Positions 38 through 44,574 of a DNA stretch of 64,000 nt are shown here, piece by piece. The notes beneath the pieces were generated by a model. It was not told the origin of the DNA, made no database searches, and saw only the letters and a program-made list of their open reading frames with translations. The number at the start of each line of letters is the position of its first letter. Within the stretch, counting starts at the first letter, position 1. The position numbers and the translations under genes are program-made. The DNA is from Escherichia phage 241Ecol014PP: the sequence record OR062943.1; one strand, given 5' to 3'.

Positions 38-3000
38 ATGCCAATTGCAATGATTGATAACATCGTTGCTTCTGCAAGATCTTCAAGTTATGACTGGAAC
101 GCATCCAAGGCAGCTCTGGCTGACAGCCTGAACACTGTTACCACCAGAACTCTGGATAAGATTTTTGAGGGCAACAAATCTTACAGAAGTCAGCAAGATA
201 GACAAAAGCTTCTCAGATCTTCTGCTGCACCTTGCTCTGTAGTGTATGGGAAGACACGCACATCCGGATTGCTTGCGTTTTTGGAGCAGGATAGCGACAG
301 AACCCTCCATTGTGCTATTGTTCTTGCTAATCATCCTCTGGAAGGTATAGAAGACATACTCATCGACGGTAATCCTATTTCCTCGTATGGAGATCTGGTA
401 TCGTGGGAGCTACATAACGACAGAAAAACATCTGATCCTTTCATGGGTACACACTGCCCATCATGGTCACCTGACATGATAGGTAGAGGGATTAGTTGGC
501 TACGTGCCAGTTTCAAGTTTGACCCTAACAAGTTTCCTTTTGGGTTGCCAAACGTTACACTCGTTAAGGTTGGTAAAAAATGCTATGATCCTCGTATCAG
601 TAAAGAGGTGTACACCAATAACGCAGCCTTGGTGATCCTAGACTATTTAAGAACGTACCTTAAATGTCCTGACGAAACCATCAACTGGGAGTCCTTTAAG
701 GAGGCTGCCAACATATGCGACGAAGCGGTAAAAAACGCTGACGGAACCAGTGAGCGACGTTACACCATTAACGGTGAGTTCGACATGGATGAGGCTCCAG
801 CAAGTATTATGGCAGAAATGTTGAAAGCTTGTGGTGCAGATCTCAGTTATGTAGCTGGTAAGTATGGTTTGCTGGTTGGTGCATACTATGGCCCGGCAAC
901 AATGACACTGAGTGAGGACTGTGTCTGCGGTGAGGTCAAGATCTATCCGGAAGCCTCGTTTGACAAAAGATCCAACACAATAACTGGCAGATTCACTAGT
1001 CCGACCAAAGGGTATTCTGAAACAGATTTTCCATCAGTGTTTGTCCCAGAGTGGATAGAGAAGGATGGAGAAAGAAAGATAATCGATATAGACTATCGCT
1101 TTGTTACCAGCCCTTATCAAGCTCAGCGTGTTTCTGCAATCTTCTTAAGACGTGCTAGAGCTGGCAGGATTATTGAAGTCACCTGCAATATGCGAGGTTT
1201 TAAATTTAAGCCTGGTCGTTATGTTACAATGGACCTCCCAAGTATTGGTATAGTGGGCCAAGAAATGAGGGTTCTTGAATGGGAGTTCACCAAAAAGGGC
1301 GGTGTCAAGGTAAAACTTCGTCAAGATGCTAAAGAGTGGAATGATGCCACAGGGCAACTTCCGGATTCCGGTGATGTAGATATTCCGATATCCCCGTCCG
1401 GTGTAGCTCAGCCGCAAAACTTCAGATACTCCGTTCTCCAAGCTGGGGAAGTAACTCACGGTGTTTTGGCTTGGGACAACGTTGGGACTTACGCTCAAAA
1501 TATTGTGCAAGTAAGAAAGAACGGAGAGATTGTTTGGACAGCACAGACAGTTGAGCAGTTTGTCAGAGTAGAAGGTTTGACCAAAGGGTCATACACAGCA
1601 ACCGTGGTTGCAACATCTTATAAAGGTGGTGTATCTCCAGAAGCGTACTGTGAGTTTAACATTCAGGCACCTGAAGCTCCGGTTTCTGTAGAGGTTAAGC
1701 AAGGATACTTTGCTATCACCTTGATTCCGCATAGTAGGGATTTAGCAAGTGTTAGCACCCAGTATGACTTTTGGACATCTGGTATGACAAGGTTGCCCGA
1801 CACCAGTGATGCAACCGTTACTTCAAACGCCACCCGTATGGGTGTTGGTTCAACTTGGACATCTGAAGGCCTGCAGAACGATAAGGTTTATTATTGGTAT
1901 ATTCGAACCACAAACGCTTTTGGTAGTTCTCAGTTTGTAGAATGCGCTGCACGTTGCTACACCTCTATTGAGGATTTGATGCCTCAGATAGATGCTGAAT
2001 TCAAAAAGACAGAAACTTATAAAGAGTTGATGAGCACTTTGGATTCCTCTATTGAAGAGGTTGAAAATCGTGTCACAGAACTTAACAGGTACATGGATGG
2101 TAGGGTAGATGAAGCGTTCCAGCAACTTGGGGACAGAATAGGTGCGGTAGTTACAGAAACAACTCAGAAGTTTGAAGATGTCAATGGTAACATTACAGCG
2201 CTGGATAGGAAACTTGTTGCTGCACAGAACAAGTTCACCAACGATCTGAACACTGAAAGTGGAAGATTGGCATCCCTGATTGAGACAACCAATAAAGCAA
2301 CTACTGATCTTCTGAACAAAAAGACAGAGGCTTTAGATGAGAAATTGGTTGCCGCCAAAGGTGAGCTGGTAGAGCAGATAGAGGGAGTTGAGAGCGGGTA
2401 TTTAGCCGGAGATAAAACTCTGGATGGTAAGATCAATACCCAGAGAACAGAACTTGACGCAAGCATCTTGAGCACTAACCAGGCCACTGTGGATCTTTTG
2501 AACAGGACATCTGAAACTCTGGATCAAAAGATCAGTCAGACAAACGCGACGGTATCTAAAAACTATACCACCCTGGATGGCAAGATAACCACCGCAAAAA
2601 CTGACCTCAACACCTTGATTGCCAATACCAACAAGACCACCACTGACTTGTTGAATCAGAAAACATCTGCACTGTCAGAGCAAATAACTTCTGCACGTGG
2701 GGAGATCTCTACCAACAAGCAAGCGATTGATGCTTTGGATGGAAAACTGACCTCCACAAAAACAGCGCTGGATGCTACAATTTCCGATACCAACAAGGCC
2801 ACTGTGGACCTTATCAACGGCACAGCGTCAGCTATTCGTCAAGAACTTGCTGTTGCTAAGCAGGAGATCATTGATGATGTTGGAGATGTGTCCGAGATCA
2901 GGGCTGCAGTAGCTACAACATCTAAGGCTGTGACCGACTTAGAGGGTAAAGTAAATGCTCAGTGGGGCACAAAAATACAGGTAGACTCCGCAGGGAATAA

Positions 3001-3877
3001 ATATGTTGCAGGTATCCAGTTGGGGATGGAAGGGTCTGGGGGCCAAGTTCAATCCTACTTCATGGTTAGTGCAAACAATTTTGCGGTATACAACCCCGGC
3101 AATGGAACAGCAACCCTTGCTTTCGCAATCAAGAACAACCAAGCATTCTTGAAAGACGCTTTTATAGAGAATGGCACGATCTCCTCTGCCAAGATCGCAC
3201 AAGAAATTTCGTCAAACAACTACGATGGCAACGGGTACCATAAATACGGTTGGTATATTAACAAGAACGGGCACGCCCAATTTATGGATGTGTGGGTGAA
3301 AGGCAACATCAACGCTAGTTCTGGTAACTTCACAGGGGCAGTTAACGCCACTAGTGGTACCTTCCGTGGAGATGTTTATGCCAATAATGGTAGCTTCAGG
3401 GGCACCATAGATGCAACCGGAGGTACCTTCCGTGGGCGTGTAGAAGCTTCTGTTATTCGTGCCAACCAGTTTGAAGGTGCAATTGTTGCACACAGGACTT
3501 ACGGGGATTGTGCACCAGTATACAACTCCCGGCAGAGGGTTTGCCGTTGGAGGTGGAGATACGTAGATAACGTTTCAGGTCAGGGTAAGAACGTAACATT
3601 CTTCTTTAAACTGAACGGTACTCGTGCCAACTCCCAACTAAATGCGTGGATAGCTGGTCATCAACTCCTTGCTGGCAAGAAGTACGGAAACGACAACGAT
3701 GGCATGTGTGCAGTTGGGATAACAGGTCTAGGTGAACAAACTATAGACATTATTATTGAAATCTACACCCCGTGGTCAACGTCAAACGTGACAGGTATTA
3801 CAATATCCTGTCCTACTGTGGTTGTTAGTCGTTCTAACTCCAGCTTCCAGGGACCTTGGAACGAGTCTCACGACTAA
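38..3877 (+). CDS. large tail/baseplate-associated fibre protein (host-specificity-like)
   Basis: 1279-aa ORF, GGAGG RBS upstream of ATG; central ~35-aa coiled-coil tandem repeats (LDGKITT..TDLLN), C-terminal TFRG/GxF beta repeats; terminator follows. Confidence 0.6.
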   Translation: MPIAMIDNIVASARSSSYDWNASKAALADSLNTVTTRTLDKIFEGNKSYRSQQDRQKLLRSSAAPCSVVYGKTRTSGLLAFLEQDSDRTLHCAIVLANHPLEGIEDILIDGNPISSYGDLVSWELHNDRKTSDPFMGTHCPSWSPDMIGRGISWLRASFKFDPNKFPFGLPNVTLVKVGKKCYDPRISKEVYTNNAALVILDYLRTYLKCPDETINWESFKEAANICDEAVKNADGTSERRYTINGEFDMDEAPASIMAEMLKACGADLSYVAGKYGLLVGAYYGPATMTLSEDCVCGEVKIYPEASFDKRSNTITGRFTSPTKGYSETDFPSVFVPEWIEKDGERKIIDIDYRFVTSPYQAQRVSAIFLRRARAGRIIEVTCNMRGFKFKPGRYVTMDLPSIGIVGQEMRVLEWEFTKKGGVKVKLRQDAKEWNDATGQLPDSGDVDIPISPSGVAQPQNFRYSVLQAGEVTHGVLAWDNVGTYAQNIVQVRKNGEIVWTAQTVEQFVRVEGLTKGSYTATVVATSYKGGVSPEAYCEFNIQAPEAPVSVEVKQGYFAITLIPHSRDLASVSTQYDFWTSGMTRLPDTSDATVTSNATRMGVGSTWTSEGLQNDKVYYWYIRTTNAFGSSQFVECAARCYTSIEDLMPQIDAEFKKTETYKELMSTLDSSIEEVENRVTELNRYMDGRVDEAFQQLGDRIGAVVTETTQKFEDVNGNITALDRKLVAAQNKFTNDLNTESGRLASLIETTNKATTDLLNKKTEALDEKLVAAKGELVEQIEGVESGYLAGDKTLDGKINTQRTELDASILSTNQATVDLLNRTSETLDQKISQTNATVSKNYTTLDGKITTAKTDLNTLIANTNKTTTDLLNQKTSALSEQITSARGEISTNKQAIDALDGKLTSTKTALDATISDTNKATVDLINGTASAIRQELAVAKQEIIDDVGDVSEIRAAVATTSKAVTDLEGKVNAQWGTKIQVDSAGNKYVAGIQLGMEGSGGQVQSYFMVSANNFAVYNPGNGTATLAFAIKNNQAFLKDAFIENGTISSAKIAQEISSNNYDGNGYHKYGWYINKNGHAQFMDVWVKGNINASSGNFTGAVNATSGTFRGDVYANNGSFRGTIDATGGTFRGRVEASVIRANQFEGAIVAHRTYGDCAPVYNSRQRVCRWRWRYVDNVSGQGKNVTFFFKLNGTRANSQLNAWIAGHQLLAGKKYGNDNDGMCAVGITGLGEQTIDIIIEIYTPWSTSNVTGITISCPTVVVSRSNSSFQGPWNESHD

Positions 3878-3885
3878 CCTTTAAA

Positions 3886-3912
3886 GCCCCGCTTCGGCGG
3901 GGTTTATTTTTA
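3886..3912 (+). terminator. rho-independent terminator
   Basis: hairpin CCCCGC-TTCG-GCGGGG followed by TTTATTTTT, 9 nt after stop. Confidence 0.75.
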
Positions 3913-3920
3913 TGCTCAGA

Positions 3921-3949
3921 TTGACTATTGTTACAAAATTTGGTAAAAT
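3921..3949 (+). promoter_or_regulatory. sigma70-like promoter
   Basis: TTGACT, 17-nt spacer, TAAAAT; upstream of GTG start at 3983. Confidence 0.5.
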
Positions 3950-3982
3950 ACCTTGTAGAGATTTTCATACCGGAGGAGTGAC

Positions 3983-5473
3983 GTGGCTAAGTATGGATTG
4001 ACAGAGGCTGGTTTCGTTATACCAACCCTAAATGACCTAATCGTTGAAACTAAGCAAAGCCTGATCCGTGCTTTTGGCGAAAACTTCAACGTACAGAGTA
4101 ACTCCGTTGCAGATAAGCTGACCACTATCTTCAACGAGCGAGAGTATCAACTTATTCTTATGGCAGCATCTGTATACGCATCACAGACGCTGTATGGGGC
4201 AGAAGGTATTTACCTAGATGAGCTTCTTGGAAGACAGGGTATTTACCGAAGAGGCCGTTCTAAATCATCAGGTACCTGCCAGTTGACAATCAACACAACT
4301 GTGCCGTACAATATGATTTATGATTCCAAAACTTATACGCTGGACAGTGGCAACTTTGTTCTTAGTAATGATGTGCAAGTAGCAGGGAATCTTATTGCTC
4401 ACAGAATAAATGCTCCAGACCTAAGGATTGGGAAATACAACTTCCAAATTACCAACCAAACAGACGGAAGTATCAAAACAAAAAGCCTGGTTTTAACAGA
4501 TAAGTCTCTGGACTCTTCTGATTTGCCAAGCTTTTACGGAGAGATTAAGCAATTCATTGTCGATAATACAACCCTGTTGAACGACGATTTGATTCAGATC
4601 GATATGTTGACAGGAACGTTGTGGATAGGGTACAATTCGAATCTTGATCAAGTTGGGCTTAACAGCAGGGTAGATTTCAGAGTATCCCCGATTGTAGGGG
4701 AAAGAACTATCACACTGGATGTTATCGCTAACGAGGCTGGTGAGCTGTCAAGAGAGGCAGAAACCGTGACAACAATGTCACCTACTCCCAGTGGATTCAT
4801 CAAGCTTACCAACCGAGAAAGATTCAATGAGGGCAGGGATGTTGAGAAAGACTCAGAGTATCGCTTAAGAGCTTCCAGCACAAAACAGTTAACATCTAAG
4901 GCTACCCGTCCTGCAATCCTTAGCGCTGTAAGCGAGGTGAAAGGTGTTGAGAAAGTGAGAGTGTTCTCCAACAACACCGATAAAACTGATGCTAAAGGTA
5001 TACCTCCTTACAAGTTCCAAGTGGTTGTGTTTGGTGGTGCAACGGAGGACATTTGCCAAGCACTTTACCAAACTATAGCCTGTACGAACAGGACTTATGG
5101 TAATATTTTCTACGATGTAACTACATCTGACGGTCAAACTGAAAGAATTTATTACTCCAAGGCAAATACCTACCGCCTAGATGTAAGAATTACCTACTCC
5201 GGTGCCGCACTTTCCACAACAGAAAAAGATGCCATTGTAGAGGCTCTTTTGCAGGTTGTTAACGGACTGGATGTTGCAGATACGTTGTATAATATCCAAT
5301 TGGTCGGTGCTGCATCTGCTGCTGTGTCAATAGGCAGATTTAATAGACTGGTAATTCAAGTTAAGCCAGTAGGAGCTTCTGATGAAGCTTACACTACAAA
5401 CGATATTGTTGCGAACATGACCGAGGTGTTTGACCTCGACGAAAGTAATATAACTTTCCAACAAACTATTTAA
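3983..5473 (+). CDS. baseplate wedge protein (Baseplate_J / gp6-like)
   Basis: 496-aa ORF, GTG start 5 nt after GGAGG; N-terminal region resembles baseplate J family as recalled; position in tail module. Confidence 0.45.
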   Translation: MAKYGLTEAGFVIPTLNDLIVETKQSLIRAFGENFNVQSNSVADKLTTIFNEREYQLILMAASVYASQTLYGAEGIYLDELLGRQGIYRRGRSKSSGTCQLTINTTVPYNMIYDSKTYTLDSGNFVLSNDVQVAGNLIAHRINAPDLRIGKYNFQITNQTDGSIKTKSLVLTDKSLDSSDLPSFYGEIKQFIVDNTTLLNDDLIQIDMLTGTLWIGYNSNLDQVGLNSRVDFRVSPIVGERTITLDVIANEAGELSREAETVTTMSPTPSGFIKLTNRERFNEGRDVEKDSEYRLRASSTKQLTSKATRPAILSAVSEVKGVEKVRVFSNNTDKTDAKGIPPYKFQVVVFGGATEDICQALYQTIACTNRTYGNIFYDVTTSDGQTERIYYSKANTYRLDVRITYSGAALSTTEKDAIVEALLQVVNGLDVADTLYNIQLVGAASAAVSIGRFNRLVIQVKPVGASDEAYTTNDIVANMTEVFDLDESNITFQQTI

Positions 5474-39883: not shown

Positions 39884-42800
39884 ATGAGCATGTATAGCTT
39901 CGATTTTGAGGCCTCCGGGCTTTTGGAAGACCCAGATCTTTATTACCACTGCGGCCTGTTTAAAGAGCTGAATAAGAACCGTTTTATGCTGTTCCTCCCT
40001 CTAAATGACCGCACACACTACTCCGAGGAGGATATAGAGAAGGCTAAGAACTTCATTCTGGCAAAGAAAACTCTTTATAAAGATTTTGAAGTTCGCATAG
40101 CAGATTTTTCGGAGTTGGAAGGTTGGCTTACAGGCAATTCCGACTGGTCACCAACAGCTTTGAACTGCCATAACTGCTACAGTTATGACTTTATGCTGAT
40201 GGAGAAATTATCCGGTATTCATTTTGATATGTTCCGTGATCCTAAATGCATGGGTACTATCAACGATCACCAGGTTAACCTGTTCGATACGTTGGCGATG
40301 AGCCGAATCTTGTGGCCTGATCGCCCTTTACCAAAAGGTTGTCCGGACTCTGTATTCAACCCGGTTACTAAGAAAATGCAGCCTGTTGGTGCCCACGGCC
40401 TTATGGCATGGGGCTACGCCCTTGGTAACCAGAAAGTTCAAATTGATGACTGGCGTGATCTTCCGTTGTGGAAGTATGTGGATCGTGTATTCGAGGACGT
40501 TATCATCCAGGAGCTGCTCTGGAAAGAGCTGGTAGCGGAATCAAAAGGTGTATTCTACGGCAAATCTGACATGCAGAACTTTATGTACGATCCTGCCAAA
40601 GAGAAGCCGAAAGGGTTCAAGAAGATCACCTGGAAGAACGCATTACGCCGGGGTATGCTGCAGCACTTCCTGATGGAGCTGCAGGCCCGTCAGGGTGTAT
40701 ACTTCGACATAGATGGAGCTATTGCTTTACGTGACCGTTGCGATGCGTGGATGAAAGAGATCGCTGATCGTGTTGAACCTCAACTTCCTTTAAAAGAGTT
40801 GTCAATGTCTCAGCGGCCCAAGTTCCCTGAAAAGCCGTTTAACCAAGATGGGACAATCTCCAATAATGGTTGGAAATGGTTAAAAGATAAGCTTGGCTAT
40901 CCTGTGGACATGAGTGCTTTAGAGTTCAAAGCCCCGCCTAAGCGAGCATTTACCTCCACAGGAGATGTCAGCAAGATGGGGATAAAATGGTGTGAAGAGA
41001 TGGGCTGCAAAGACCCCGATAAGATGGCTGATTTCTTGAGAGGCTATATTAAGGGCACTTCCACACCACACCCTTTACCTAAAGAGCTGATGGATCAGGC
41101 GATAAGTGATCTACAGCAGAAGCGAATGCCGGACTGCAAGATACCTATGAAAATCAGCAATCAGGACGACATTAAGCGATACCTGATCAGTGCTGGTTGG
41201 CTTCCGACAATGTGGAGAACTAAGGATGTAACTAAAGACAGCAAGAAGAAAGCTCTACCTGATGCAGATGTTGATGCACGAGTATATGCATATATGGACG
41301 AGCTTTTAGAGTCAGAGTATTGTGATCTGATTATCAACTTCTGGAACAAAACTGATGCTAAGTTCCAGACAACCGTGCACAAGTTCCGAAGCTTTCCTAA
41401 CTCCGAAAGGATTAAAAAGGAAGTGTTCGGGAAAATACGTAGAAAAGCCAGAGCACTTATTACTTCTCCGCAGCTGAAAGATACGTTTGGACACCTATGC
41501 CCAAATCTTGAAAAATTGAACGGAGAGATGGCTAAAGATATCGTCTTGTGGTTATCATTGCGAAACCGCAGATCGGTCCTTGATCCAATCAAGGAGGATA
41601 AGGTTGATACTGGTCTTCTTAATCACCCACGTTTGAAGATTGACCATAAGCTTCCTGCTAAAAGTTCTGGGTTAACAAACACTTCCCGACAGAAACACAG
41701 TATTTGTGCAAACATGCCTAAACCATCTCCTAAAGTGGTTATGGGTAAAGAGATGCGTAGTCTGTGGGGTGTTCCTCCAGGATACTTTGAGATCGGTATT
41801 GACGGGTCCAACTTAGAGCAGCTTATCGGGGCTTGGGGTGCCTTTGAGTTCGACAACGGCCTGTATTATGATGTTGTAAGTAACGGCGATGCACACTGTT
41901 ATTCAGGAGATACACAAATTCTCACGGAGAAAGGGTGGGTGAGGTTTGAAGATCTTGATCCGGGAACACAAGTGTTCCAGTACGATCACAACACCTCGTC
42001 GATGAACCTTGTTACTCCATTAAATTACGTTAAGCGTAGTTATTGTGGGGATATGTATCATTTCCACAACAGCAGTGTGGATTTTATGGTTACAGATCAA
42101 CACAGGATGCTGACCGTGGATCACAGAAGCAATAAATTGTTTGAAGATTTGGCAAAAGACCTGAAAGCAGGTAAAGGGTCTAATTCAGGAAGAAGGTTTA
42201 TCCATGCGGCAGAGTTTTATGGGAATACAACCTTATCTCCTGCCCAGATTAATTTGCTTATTGCTATTCACGATGATGGGCACTTGCATACAAATAAGGA
42301 CGGCAGCATCGTGTGCAGGATTCAGGTCGGGAAGGGCAGAAAAGTTGCAACGCTTTTAGATACTTTTTCTGCTCTAAGCCTTAGTTATGTAGAGCAGAGC
42401 GGGAAAACCACAAAAGGGGGCTTACTGGCGAGAAGGTTCCAATTCCACGTTCCGTCCTGGGTATTTGAGTTTTTGGACAGCAATAAGGATTTCACCTACA
42501 ACCTGATGGACCTTGATAAAGAATCTAAAAACCTGTTTATAGCTTCTTTATCTAACTGGGACGGATGGGTATCTTCCGAAGGTGGAAAAGTTGCCTACTA
42601 CTCTCAGTCCGAGTGCAGGAAGAAATCTGTAGAGGTTGTGTCTGCGCTGGCTACTCAGTGTGGTTTACGGAATAATACGGTGGCGATTCACAAAAAAGGT
42701 CGTTCCGTACAGCACAGAATCACGATTGGTAGCAAACAGAGAGCAGGGTTGCTGACACTATCTAAAGAGTCTGTCGAGGTGAGTGGTTCTTTGGTTTATT

Positions 42801-43276
42801 GCGTTACCGTCCCTTCTGGAGCAATCATTGTGAGAAGGAATGGTAAAGTGGCAGTGTGCGGTAACTGTAATAACGCCAAAGCTTACTCTTCTGTAGCAGG
42901 CAAGGAGATTTCCCGTAACGATGGTAAGCCTGTCACGTATGGGGTTATGTACGGGGCACAAAAAGATAAAGTTGCAGATATGCTGGATATCTCCCCAGAG
43001 TTGGGGCAAAGGGTGATCGATGCACTTTGGGATGCCAACCCCGGTCTTAAGGGGCGCAAAGAGGATCTGGAGAAATTCTGGGAAGCAACAGGTAAGAAGT
43101 TTATCTACTCTTTTGATGGTCATGCTATCTGGACTCGATCTAAACACTCTTTACTTAATGCATACCAACAAAATGGTGGTGCATCGCTGTGTGACTTAGT
43201 TGGGATACTCATGCACCACCAAATGGTGAAGCGTGGGTGGTACGATGAAGGTGTTCGTCGTATTATTTATTACCAT
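39884..43276 (+). CDS. family-A DNA polymerase, exon 1 (contains intein)
   Basis: Exo I FDFEASGL; motif A-like IDGSNLEQL; motif B-like RNDGKPVTYGVMYGA; ORF stops 2 codons after the His expected to begin motif C (HDE). Confidence 0.7.
41897..42865 (+). mobile_element. intein (323 aa) within DNA polymerase, putative LAGLIDADG endonuclease core
   Basis: in-frame insert between motifs A and B: starts CYSGDTQILTEKG, block B-like VTDQHRM, ends VYCVTV..NGKVAVCGN with +1 Cys; LLIAIHDDGHL and FIASLSNWDGW candidate LAGLIDADG motifs. Confidence 0.65.
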
Positions 43277-43552
43277 AAATAACATTGTGGCTTCATAGAG
43301 TAATCTATGTCGAATAACCTCTTTAACTGCGGGAAGCCTAAACCTTATGGCAAGGTAATCCGCAACGAAGCGCTCAAAAGAGCGAACGCTCAGAGGCCAT
43401 TCCGAAAGGAAGTAGACCAGCAAGTGCGGTCGAAATGGGAGGATTCCTGTGGTTGCTTATCATAGGAATATGAGATGGTCCGATCCTACGTGAAAACGTA
43501 TGGCTATGCACGTAATGGTGCGGGGTAGCTTAACGACCTACCTGAACTATTG
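43277..43552 (+). mobile_element. group I self-splicing intron (ORF-less) in DNA polymerase gene
   Basis: 276 nt; exon 1 ends ..CCAU pairing with GUGG guide at 43287-43290; P-like CTGCGGGAAG 43327, Q-like AATCCGCAAC 43357, P7 AGACCA 43414 / TGGTC 43476; last nt G; joins H|DE of motif C. Confidence 0.6.
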
Positions 43553-43906
43553 GATGAGTACCAAATTCAAGTCCCTGACACGCCTAAGTATAAGACTGTG
43601 TACACCTTCGACACAATTGAAGAACTGGAAGCATTTAAGGCAGAGCAGGAGGCCAAACTTCATGTGTTTGACGGTCATAAGTACAAAAAGGCACGCAAGG
43701 ATGAGAACGGAAACGAAGTGGTTGACAGAGACGGAAACACGGTGTACGATCCTATCCTGAACGATGACGGAAAGCTTGAACTTATCTGGAGCCCTGTGGG
43801 TGAAATGGTGGTGCATTGCTTCTGGCAAGCTTCTAAAATGATGGGCGTCCCGTTCCAGATCACAGGTGAATACTTGTGTGGGGCTAATTGGGGTAGTTGC
43901 CATTGA
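43553..43906 (+). CDS. family-A DNA polymerase, exon 2 (C-terminal part)
   Basis: begins DEYQIQV (motif C DE), ends GANWGSCH resembling the family-A C-terminus; no RBS or ATG of its own. Confidence 0.6.
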   Translation, partial: DEYQIQVPDTPKYKTVYTFDTIEELEAFKAEQEAKLHVFDGHKYKKARKDENGNEVVDRDGNTVYDPILNDDGKLELIWSPVGEMVVHCFWQASKMMGVPFQITGEYLCGANWGSCH

Positions 43907-43926: not shown

Positions 43927-44574
43927 ATGGAAGAATGGAGAAAACTGGTTGGCAGGGAGGCCAACTATGAAGTTAGCAGTAAAGGAAGGATTAAAAGGCT
44001 GTCTTACCTGAGGAAGTACAGTAACCAAACAGGTAAAGTTACTTTCAAAGCTGTCCCTGACAGGATTTTAAAAGGTAGCGTAGACAGTAGCGGTTACATT
44101 CAAGTAAATGTAGATGGAAGATCGGAATTGCTTCACAGGTTAATTGCCGAGACCTTTCTAGAGCCTCCTTCAAAAGAGCTTGTAGAGGAATGTAAGGCAG
44201 CAGGGCTGGACTATGTGCCGATCAATCATAAAGACCATAACCGCCTAAACAATGCTGCTGACAACCTTGAATGGGCCTCGCCTTCAAAAAATGCACAAGA
44301 TGTGGACTACGACTACCATAAAACAAGAGGGGAAAGTTCATACTGTGCAAAACTTAAAGAGCGAGATGTTGACGAAATATTAAAGCTTTCCAAAACAGGT
44401 ATGTCACAGCAAGCTATAGCAGATCTTTTCGGTGTTAATCAGATAACCATTTCCAATATCTTGACAGGTAGGAGTTGGGCATGGTACACTGGGATACCTA
44501 AAACCGCAAGGTGTAAAAACAAAAGGGGGAGATCCCCGAAAAGCATGTCTGAGCAAAATTTCTCTGTAAGCTGA
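43927..44574 (+). CDS. HNH homing endonuclease (NUMOD4-like N-term, HTH C-term)
   Basis: EEWRKLVG..YEVSSKGRIKR N-terminus; INHKDHNRLNN..NLEW HNH core; C-terminal MSQQAIADLFGVNQITISNIL helix-turn-helix. Confidence 0.6.
   Translation: MEEWRKLVGREANYEVSSKGRIKRLSYLRKYSNQTGKVTFKAVPDRILKGSVDSSGYIQVNVDGRSELLHRLIAETFLEPPSKELVEECKAAGLDYVPINHKDHNRLNNAADNLEWASPSKNAQDVDYDYHKTRGESSYCAKLKERDVDEILKLSKTGMSQQAIADLFGVNQITISNILTGRSWAWYTGIPKTARCKNKRGRSPKSMSEQNFSVS

Follow-up and report, generated by a model that had tools for sequence, protein, structure and literature searches.

The DNA polymerase gene of Escherichia phage 241Ecol014PP, as found in a 64,000-nucleotide stretch of sequence record OR062943.1 (hereafter, the window), is interrupted between the regions encoding polymerase motifs A and B by an in-frame block of 323 codons. 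This raises the question of whether the block encodes a part of the working polymerase or an element that removes itself from the protein. A preliminary description, made from the sequence alone, had read it as an intein with a putative LAGLIDADG endonuclease core. Our comparative analyses indicated that the insert is very probably a functional, mobile intein in the family A DNA polymerase (PolA) of an rV5-like (Vequintavirus) coliphage. This conclusion draws on its insertion status and linked 3' tract, on the predicted fold, and on its family membership, conserved residues and discordant divergence, each of which was observed or computed here. In architecture, chemistry and life style it is a canonical LAGLIDADG intein, belonging to a large family with characterised members.

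The host gene and the insertion site

The source phage is an rV5-like coliphage of the genus Vequintavirus: the region 39884-44600 matches approximately 133 phage records, mostly at 90-99% identity, and the gene order, with primase/helicase followed by DNA polymerase, is that of annotated relatives. The open reading frame (ORF) at 39884-43282 encodes 1,132 amino acids (aa), has PHROG DNA polymerase matches and contains a block of 969 bp. This block (41897-42865; 323 codons) is stop-free and in frame; its translation begins CYSGDTQILTEKG and ends NGKVAVCGN, and the next residue is Cys. When the block and a downstream intron were removed in silico, the C-terminal third of the protein aligned with T7 gp5 (E 1e-13), pairing GIDGSNLE with T7 GID475ASGLE (motif A), RNDGKPVTYGVMYG with T7 RDNAKTFIYGFLYG (motif B) and YYHDE with T7 WVHDE (motif C). 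Thus, the T7 gp5 alignment agrees with the earlier placement of a 323-aa in-frame insert between motifs A and B, and the translation is identical to the one first reported, with its initial Cys, its block B TxxH and its final NGKVAVCGN followed by Cys. The coding segments of the gene are as follows:

39884..41896, + strand: N-extein, family A DNA polymerase from the start codon through motif A to ...VVSNGDAH (ORF, PHROG matches, T7 gp5 alignment)
41897..42865, + strand: intein of 323 aa, with a LAGLIDADG homing endonuclease domain lodged in the HINT splicing domain (sequence comparison, profiles, model)
42866..43276, + strand: first part of the C-extein, which takes in motif B and stops with exon 1 at ...RRIIYYH (T7 gp5 alignment, in-silico splice)
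43553..43906, + strand: polymerase exon 2, beginning DEYQIQV... and ending with the stop codon (T7 alignment continues through HDE)

The insertion point lies between motifs A and B, directly 3' of a His codon that aligns with His506 of T7 (GDIH/T, where the slash marks the junction). In the T7 ternary complex, His506 contacts the incoming deoxynucleoside triphosphate (dNTP). Because the insertion adjoins the equivalent of this residue, the fingers subdomain is expected to be disrupted in the unspliced precursor, and such a conserved active-site position is typical of inteins.

Comparison with the matching phages showed that the block is precisely absent from orthologues at this conserved site. 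Phage RudolfGeigy (Bas52) has an empty allele, in which the two flanks adjoin each other directly and the gene is shorter by exactly 969 bp; it reads ...VVSNGDAH/QNNAEAYTKVAGREVSRNDGKPITYG, compared with ...VVSNGDAH/C(321 aa)N/CNNAKAYSSVAGKEISRNDGKPVTYG in the window, the junctions being DAH/QNNAEAY when empty and DAH/C...GN/CNNAKAY when occupied. Most of the approximately 133 matching records align to the query with a gap of the insert size, and only six contain the block: Mangalyan, JEP1, NHEP1, YP-6, EPFV3-03/2025 and VB-EcoM-WM. These six isolates are viable, and the intein sits in their only phage-encoded family A polymerase gene; together with the purifying selection on the catalytic residues (see below), this lends indirect support to splicing. 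Continuous alignment of polymerase homologues across the segment, which the preliminary description had named as grounds for abandoning the intein, was not observed; the homologues lack the insert exactly.

The same PolA site is also occupied outside Vequintavirus. The closest relatives there are six family A polymerase copies (P0007, P0009, P0016, P0060, P0078 and P0110), with 32-40% identity for the four that were aligned, in which the intein lies at G-D-x-H followed by T, S or C and the Pfam DNA_pol_A match resumes at approximately profile position 204, just past the intein. The +1 residue is Thr in many of these copies, like T507 of T7.

Architecture and predicted fold of the insert

The insert has an N-terminal nucleophile with a block B TxxH (Cys1, T66 and H69) and a C-terminal Asn followed by Cys at +1 (N323 and Cys+1). 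The penultimate His at block G:6, which is common in inteins without defining them, is absent, and Gly322 stands in its place. In addition, two LAGLIDADG motifs lie 95 residues apart, each with an acidic residue followed by Gly. The domains and motifs were mapped as follows:

41897..42211, + strand: N-terminal HINT lobe, approximately residues 1-105 (Hint_2 23.7 bits; 6zgq E 1.5e-11 with the family profile; model)
41897-41899, + strand: block A Cys1 (translation)
42092-42109, + strand: block B T66-D-Q-H69-R70-M71, in VTDQHRM (translation)
42212..42751, + strand: LAGLIDADG homing endonuclease domain, approximately residues 106-285 (model, Foldseek, conserved columns, LAGLIDADG_3 in relatives)
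42254-42280, + strand: LAGLIDADG motif 1, LLIAIHDDG, acidic residue D127 (translation)
42536-42565, + strand: LAGLIDADG motif 2, FIASLSNWDG, acidic residue D222 (translation)
within the endonuclease domain, + strand: family-conserved R148/K149 and K197 (conserved columns)
42752..42865, + strand: C-terminal HINT lobe (translation, conservation, correspondence with AceL NrdHF)
within the C-terminal HINT lobe, + strand: block F VYC302VTVP306SG, with Cys302 at 42800-42802 (C302 invariant in the family)
42857-42865, + strand: block G VAVC321-G322-N323 (G322/N323 nearly invariant)
42866..42868, + strand: codon TGT for Cys+1, nucleophile of the C-extein, where empty alleles encode Gln with CAA (comparison with the empty allele)

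An AlphaFold2 model of the insert, built from an alignment of 42 relatives trimmed to it, had a mean predicted local distance difference test (pLDDT) score of 95.3 and a predicted template modelling (pTM) score of 0.92. Its best Foldseek matches in the PDB were endonuclease-bearing inteins, namely TliVMA (7qsu, E 1.3e-15, TM 0.70), PI-SceI (8e-15) and PI-PkoII; AceL NrdHF (6zgq) covers the splicing lobe with a target-normalised TM of 0.83, and the monomeric LAGLIDADG enzymes I-DmoI and I-SceI cover the central domain at approximately 1e-6. The secondary structure consists of beta strands only up to residue 102 and of beta structure again from approximately residue 282 to the end. The middle comprises two alpha-beta-beta-alpha-beta-beta units, each starting at one LAGLIDADG-like segment; by DSSP, the first is H115-127, E128-132, E138-144, H147-159, E164-171 and E177-184, and the second is H208-220, E223-225, E232-236, H239-254, E258-264 and E272-278. 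The predicted structure has a HINT fold, and a double-motif LAGLIDADG core is supported by this fold together with Pfam matches in the relatives: PF14528 LAGLIDADG_3 matches 8 of 43 aligned relatives (best E 1.3e-5), and Intein_splicing matches 5 of the 43. The same evidence bears out the two LAGLIDADG-like segments that had been pointed out in the middle of the insert. An HNH or other type of endonuclease in this position was ruled out by the predicted fold.

On the polymerase ORF, the family profile scored 320 bits (E 5e-97) over profile positions 1-312 of 312, and its match to the endonuclease region of PI-SceI was weak (E 0.44). With this profile, no second copy of the intein family was found in the six-frame translation of the window.

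An abundant intein family in phage genes

A tblastn search against phage genomes returned full-length matches to the insert in unrelated genes, with 25-30% identity and E values down to 6e-25. The host genes of these homologues encode NrdA (in T5-like phages), NrdB, PhoH, the ThyA/ThyX thymidylate synthases, RtcB, nicotinamide phosphoribosyltransferase (NAMPT, in Staphylococcus phages) and a nucleotidyltransferase of cluster C mycobacteriophages. The module thus occurs in at least 10 unrelated enzymes, and it is always bounded by Cys1 and by (G)N followed by C, S or T. An exhaustive phmmer search over 1.84 billion cluster representatives yielded 7,754 matches at E<=1e-3, of which 2,205 reach E<=1e-10; the matches almost always span residues 1-323. 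A word-index protein search with the insert, the sensitivity of which is limited by the word index, gave no match at E<=1e-5.

Junction statistics were compiled from 139 full-length copies in the top 150 proteins. Residue 1 is Cys and the +1 residue is Cys, Ser or Thr in every copy (139/139, 100% in both cases); the last residue is Asn in 88% and Gln in 11% (99% together), and the penultimate residue is Gly in 92%. The preliminary description had identified this Gly correctly but had treated it as a departure from the usual His; because 92% of the copies have it, the penultimate Gly is a trait of the family, not an anomaly, and a homologue splices with Gly at this position (see below). T66, H69, D127, R148, K149, K197, W221, D222, G223, G256, C302, V305, P306, R313, G322 and N323 are invariant or nearly so, with H69, D222 and C302 invariant and D127 nearly invariant in the aligned family, and the copy in the window retains every such residue. 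It also has all the features of a descriptive, unpublished subfamily, Cys1...HRM...C(F:4)xxxP...[S/T/C]-G-N, which may be labelled Bethlehem RDF-like or AceL NrdHF-like. A bacterial intein-like (BIL) domain was ruled out, as the +1 nucleophile is 100% conserved.

The spread of the module also bears on the opposite answer to our question, that the insert is a lineage-specific accessory domain which stays in the mature polymerase. Such a domain would fit the sub-threshold scores of the curated Pfam and TIGRFAM intein models on the insert and the GenBank records that label the whole ORF as DNA polymerase or hypothetical protein. However, the module recurs with constant Cys1 and (G)N-C/S/T borders in unrelated enzymes, it splits the fingers subdomain beside the dNTP-binding His, its predicted HINT and LAGLIDADG fold is of high confidence, and approximately 95% of the close relatives function without it. 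Judged by these sequence comparisons, an accessory domain appears effectively refuted, and we regard it as extremely improbable.

Two further members were of note. A full-length member in a ribonucleotide reductase (RNR) gene of Corynebacterium phage Darwin (L013, NC_042086 52495-53781) begins with Ala1 (ME/AFSGDTELLT ... VISGN/C); it resembles the class 3 intein AceL NrdHF in this respect and suggests that Ala1 variants arise within the Cys1 family. The metagenomic protein P0003 (2,020 aa) is a family A polymerase fused to a uracil-DNA glycosylase domain, and it contains two copies of the intein family as well as a further Intein_splicing region with an HNH_3 motif.

Characterised relatives

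A full-length alignment with the family profile (hhalign 99.8%, E 8e-29, 22% identity; BLASTP 1e-11) identifies the gp51 (RDF) intein of mycobacteriophage Bethlehem as a homologue. It shares Cys1, TxxH-R, a block F of the form V-W/Y-C-x-x-V-P, an end of the form ...T/C-G-N, Cys+1 and a two-motif LAGLIDADG insert with the intein in the window, and it is close to it in size (317 aa, ending ...LTGN, versus 323 aa). It differs in its host gene, an actinophage metallophosphoesterase gene rather than a coliphage PolA gene, and in LAGLIDADG motif 1 (VWGLTDSH versus LLIAIHDDG). In an MBP-intein-GFP reporter, splicing of this homologue goes to completion with the native Gly in the penultimate position, precursor accumulates when that residue is changed to His (G316H), and the endonuclease of the homologue is toxic in E. 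coli (PMC5050341).

The closest solved HINT domain is that of AceL NrdHF (PDB 6zgq; E 1.5e-11 with the family profile). AceL NrdHF has Ala1 and an atypical M-C-T triplet, lacks the F:13 and G:6 His, and uses Cys124 (F:4) as its first nucleophile, which places it in class 3 (Hoffmann et al. 2020, PMC7891396). In this intein, Arg69 (B:11) touches the C-terminal scissile carbonyl and supports Asn cyclisation; R69A splices more slowly, and G145H abolishes activity, since the His would clash with Arg69 (PMC7891396). The intein in the window shares H-R-M in block B (H69-R70-M71) and the lack of both C-terminal catalytic His residues, and C124, P128 and T144-G145-N146 of AceL NrdHF correspond to its C302, P306 and C321-G322-N323. 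The mapping of C302, P306, G322 and N323 was made by spacing, a partial string, the published numbering and the Foldseek superposition; a phmmer search of the C-terminal 43 residues against the PDB for an alignment of blocks F and G with 6zgq returned chance matches only. AceL NrdHF differs in having Ala1 and proven class 3 chemistry, in consisting of two naturally separate halves with a free-standing GIY-YIG gene between them, in its RNR host gene and in lacking a LAGLIDADG domain, whereas the intein in the window is contiguous and has Cys1 and its own LAGLIDADG domain.

Over the whole chain, the best structures are those of PI-SceI (yeast VMA1), TliVMA/PhoVMA and PI-PkoII (E 1e-15 to 1e-9, query-normalised TM 0.62-0.70). 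They have in common with the insert a two-motif LAGLIDADG endonuclease lodged in a HINT domain and a life style of splicing plus homing, but they are only 10-15% identical, are larger, have the penultimate His (...HN) and come from eukaryotic or archaeal hosts.

Proposed splicing route

On the reading that the insert is an intein, we infer that the gene is expressed in the following way. After transcription, the group I intron would be removed from the RNA, and translation would give a precursor of approximately 1,248 aa, with the intein breaking the fingers subdomain immediately behind the His that contacts the dNTP. Self-excision by the HINT domain would then join ...GDAH to CNNAKAY..., giving a 925-aa polymerase and the free 323-aa intein.

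Class 1 chemistry is the most likely route as judged from the residues present, because Cys1 is absolutely conserved in the sampled family and block B is of the class 1 type, TxxH. With help from T66 and H69, Cys1 would form the initial thioester at the N-terminal junction, and the N-extein would pass to Cys+1 by trans-thioesterification. Asn323 would then cyclise, with Arg70 (block B:11) probably standing in for the absent penultimate His, as Arg69 does in AceL NrdHF, and an S-to-N acyl shift would restore the peptide bond. The invariant block F Cys302, which lies in the active site, may assist or act as a relay.

An alternative is that splicing follows a class 3 route, in which Cys302 attacks the N-terminal junction to form a branched thioester before transfer to Cys+1 and Cys1 owes its conservation to something else, or in which the acyl group is relayed from Cys1 to Cys302 and on to Cys+1. 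The closest solved HINT relative, AceL NrdHF, uses its block F:4 Cys124 in this way (PMC7891396) and shares with the intein in the window Arg-Met at B:11/B:12, the F:4 Cys with Pro at +4, Ser/Thr/Cys at G:5, Gly at G:6 and the lack of an F:13 or G:6 His. Cys302 is invariant in the family, the Darwin RNR intein is a full-length member with Ala1, and the residues Met71, Cys302 and Cys321 resemble the atypical M-C-T of AceL NrdHF. However, the presence of Cys1 in all 139 sampled copies is hard to square with a dispensable Cys1, and the TxxH block B is typical of class 1. The Bethlehem RDF intein is classed as class 1 by Kelley et al. 2016 (PMC5050341), and Cys is the second most common F:4 residue among inteins generally (PMC4031507). 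Formal membership of class 3 was rejected, since Cys1 is present and, at the positions of the WCT triplet, only the F:4 Cys fits, the Trp and the Thr being missing. A class 3 route is therefore unlikely for this intein.

It is conceivable, though we consider it rather doubtful, that the family as a whole, which combines an invariant Cys1 and an invariant block F Cys with, in most cases, Ser, Thr or Cys at G:5 and lacks the C-terminal His, is a mechanistic intermediate, using either the relay from Cys1 through Cys302 to Cys+1 or Cys302 as the true first nucleophile, and is not plain class 1. If so, Ala1 inteins of the class 3 type, such as AceL NrdHF and the Darwin intein, would arise repeatedly, against a single origin of class 3. 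Four cysteines (C1, C302, C321 and C+1) crowd into the active site of the copy in the window, and on this reading maturation of the polymerase could be redox-gated.

Selection and mobility

Between the window and VB-EcoM-WM, the intein has a synonymous divergence (dS) of 0.54 and a ratio of nonsynonymous to synonymous divergence (dN/dS) of 0.08; dN/dS is 0.075 over a dS of 0.62 in the endonuclease domain and 0.055 in the N-terminal HINT lobe. These low ratios indicate purifying selection on both activities.

Between the window and YP-6/EPFV3, the upstream extein has a dS of 0.36, compared with 0.014 for the intein, which is approximately 25 times lower. In 100-nt bins, each bin of the gene's 5' half has 5-13 differences, and the number drops to 0-3 in and next to the intein. 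This discordance between extein and intein divergence therefore indicates a recent transfer of the intein, together with its immediate flanks, from one diverged polymerase allele to another. The downstream flank has a distinct pattern of its own:

42866..42935, + strand: 3' tract linked to the intein, read as a co-conversion tract of presumptive origin (24 differences from Bas52 in approximately 70 nt)

Upstream of the intein, the polymerase in the window differs from that of Bas52 at 0-5 nt per 100, with 13 differences in the first 100 nt of the ORF, versus 24 in the first 70 nt or so downstream, decaying over the next 200 nt approximately. At the protein level, the tract reads CNNAKAYS, compared with QNNAEAYT in the empty allele, and the first 27 nt of the 3' flank are matched only by the six intein-bearing records. 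The diverged tract is thus probably a co-conversion tract brought in with the intein.

Two IMG/VR contigs from one metagenome, 121 and 139 kb long (L019, IMGVR_UViG_3300045988_157310, and L020, _140627), also have this intein, in diverged form, at the corresponding site of the polymerase. Over the intein and flanks, these alleles are 66% and 76% identical in amino acid sequence to the window, with all catalytic residues intact and flanks reading ...VSEGDAH/C...GN/CNNAKAYSKVIGREV; they were found by tblastn, and blastn of the intein against both loci gave no match. The window has CNNAKAYS in common with both contigs and not with rV5-type phages. These sequences point to a likely donor in a sister lineage in which the intein is resident.

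In mixed infections, the excised intein, as a monomeric two-motif LAGLIDADG endonuclease relying on D127 and D222, would cut intein-less polymerase alleles at the insertion site, and repair would copy the intein with a short flanking tract into the cut allele. Because the resident Gln cannot act as a splicing nucleophile, invasion of rV5-type alleles would have to co-convert the +1 codon.

The intein might instead be decaying or domesticated, still splicing, as the phage needs its polymerase, but with an inactive endonuclease, and spread only by descent and general recombination. It is rare (6 of approximately 133 records), 15 of the first 27 nt in the empty 3' half-site of rV5-type phages do not match the intein-linked flank, and no intein-free allele with a Cys+1 junction, representing the ancestral target or a precise loss, was found in INPHARED or IMG/VR. 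Against such decay stand the low dN/dS of the endonuclease domain, the much lower dS of the intein than of the extein between hosts and the lack of frameshifts or deletions, as well as the retention of the acidic residue in each LAGLIDADG motif and of the Lys and Arg residues conserved in the family, even in the alleles of 66-76% identity. We thus consider it very unlikely that the endonuclease has been lost, and favour an intein that is still mobile.

Several points nevertheless weigh against a functional, mobile class 1 intein. On the sequence in the window, Hint_2 scores 23.7 bits (cut-off 28.4) and TIGR01445 scores 14.3 (cut-off 24.5), both sub-threshold, and no LAGLIDADG Pfam model is matched directly; the insert was assigned through the family profile, transitive matches and the predicted structure. 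Because the closest solved HINT relative, AceL NrdHF, splices by the class 3 route, the role of Cys1 as first nucleophile is no more than presumptive. The discordant dS, like the linked 3' tract, could stem from homologous recombination between co-infecting phages without endonuclease cleavage. Finally, rV5-type empty sites are perhaps poor substrates, given how few records are occupied and that 15 of the first 27 nt differ in the 3' half-site.

The group I intron and neighbouring elements

The preliminary description had also proposed that one gene carries both a protein-level and an RNA-level element, and the gene was indeed found to combine the intein with a group I intron:

43277..43552, + strand: group I intron, 276 nt, no ORF, interrupting motif C (YYH/DE) (Rfam RF00028)

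With 64.7 bits, the RF00028 match (43267-43502) exceeds the gathering score of 50. The last nucleotide is U in the 5' exon and G in the intron, and the splice restores YYHDEYQ. In Mangalyan (L001 5035-5541) and VB-EcoM-WM (L017 3621-4127), an HNH ORF lies between both polymerase exons; thus, the intron content varies among the intein-bearing phages. A similar combination occurs in the Vequintavirinae relative Pectobacterium phage CB7, where NrdA has a LAGLIDADG intein and a self-splicing intron in one gene; The DNA polymerase of CB7 has introns as well, but CB7 differs in that its inteins are in the helicase, NrdA and NrdB, not in PolA (PMC7344957). Phage genes combining inteins and group I introns have been documented in crAss-like phages too (PMC7886860).

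A free-standing ORF of 215 aa at 43927-44574 (+ strand), 20 nt past exon 2, has NUMOD4, HNH_3 and helix-turn-helix matches and is, from these matches, a putative third homing element at the locus. Among the matches listed, only that of phita32 to the query extends across this ORF.

In the six GenBank records, the whole intein-bearing ORF is annotated as DNA polymerase or hypothetical protein, and no intein is marked. In YP-6 (L003, ORF 1501-4899) and EPFV3-03/2025 (L018, 88-3486), exon 1 with the intein is annotated as 'hypothetical protein', and exon 2 of the YP-6 polymerase is without any annotation; the poor annotation of these two phages probably reflects similarity broken up by the intein and the intron. 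The records matching the query also include 16 GenBank entries (MG065635-MG065677) named 'Campylobacter phage' with C. jejuni as host. Among the matches listed, they have approximately 97% identity to the polymerase region and genomes of 135-141 kb, and they look like Vequintavirus sequences under another host label.

Implications

The case is less unusual than it had at first been taken to be, as the family is abundant in phage genes for replication and nucleotide metabolism and the same site is occupied in other PolA genes. A description of an intein in Vequintavirus PolA was not found in the searchable literature. For annotation, the 3.4-kb ORF should read as N-extein, intein and C-extein, joined across the intron.

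Taken together, these phages offer a study system for homing, as cultured close relatives exist with and without the intein and Bas52, from the BASEL collection, provides the empty-site partner. Because the empty alleles have Gln at +1, this pair lends itself to measuring co-conversion and how strongly a non-nucleophilic residue at that position hinders the spread of an intein. In addition, our analyses place AceL NrdHF, a split intein of biotechnological interest, inside a very large family whose members mostly have Cys1 and an endonuclease domain, and protein engineering could draw on this family for inteins that lack the His and probably splice fast.

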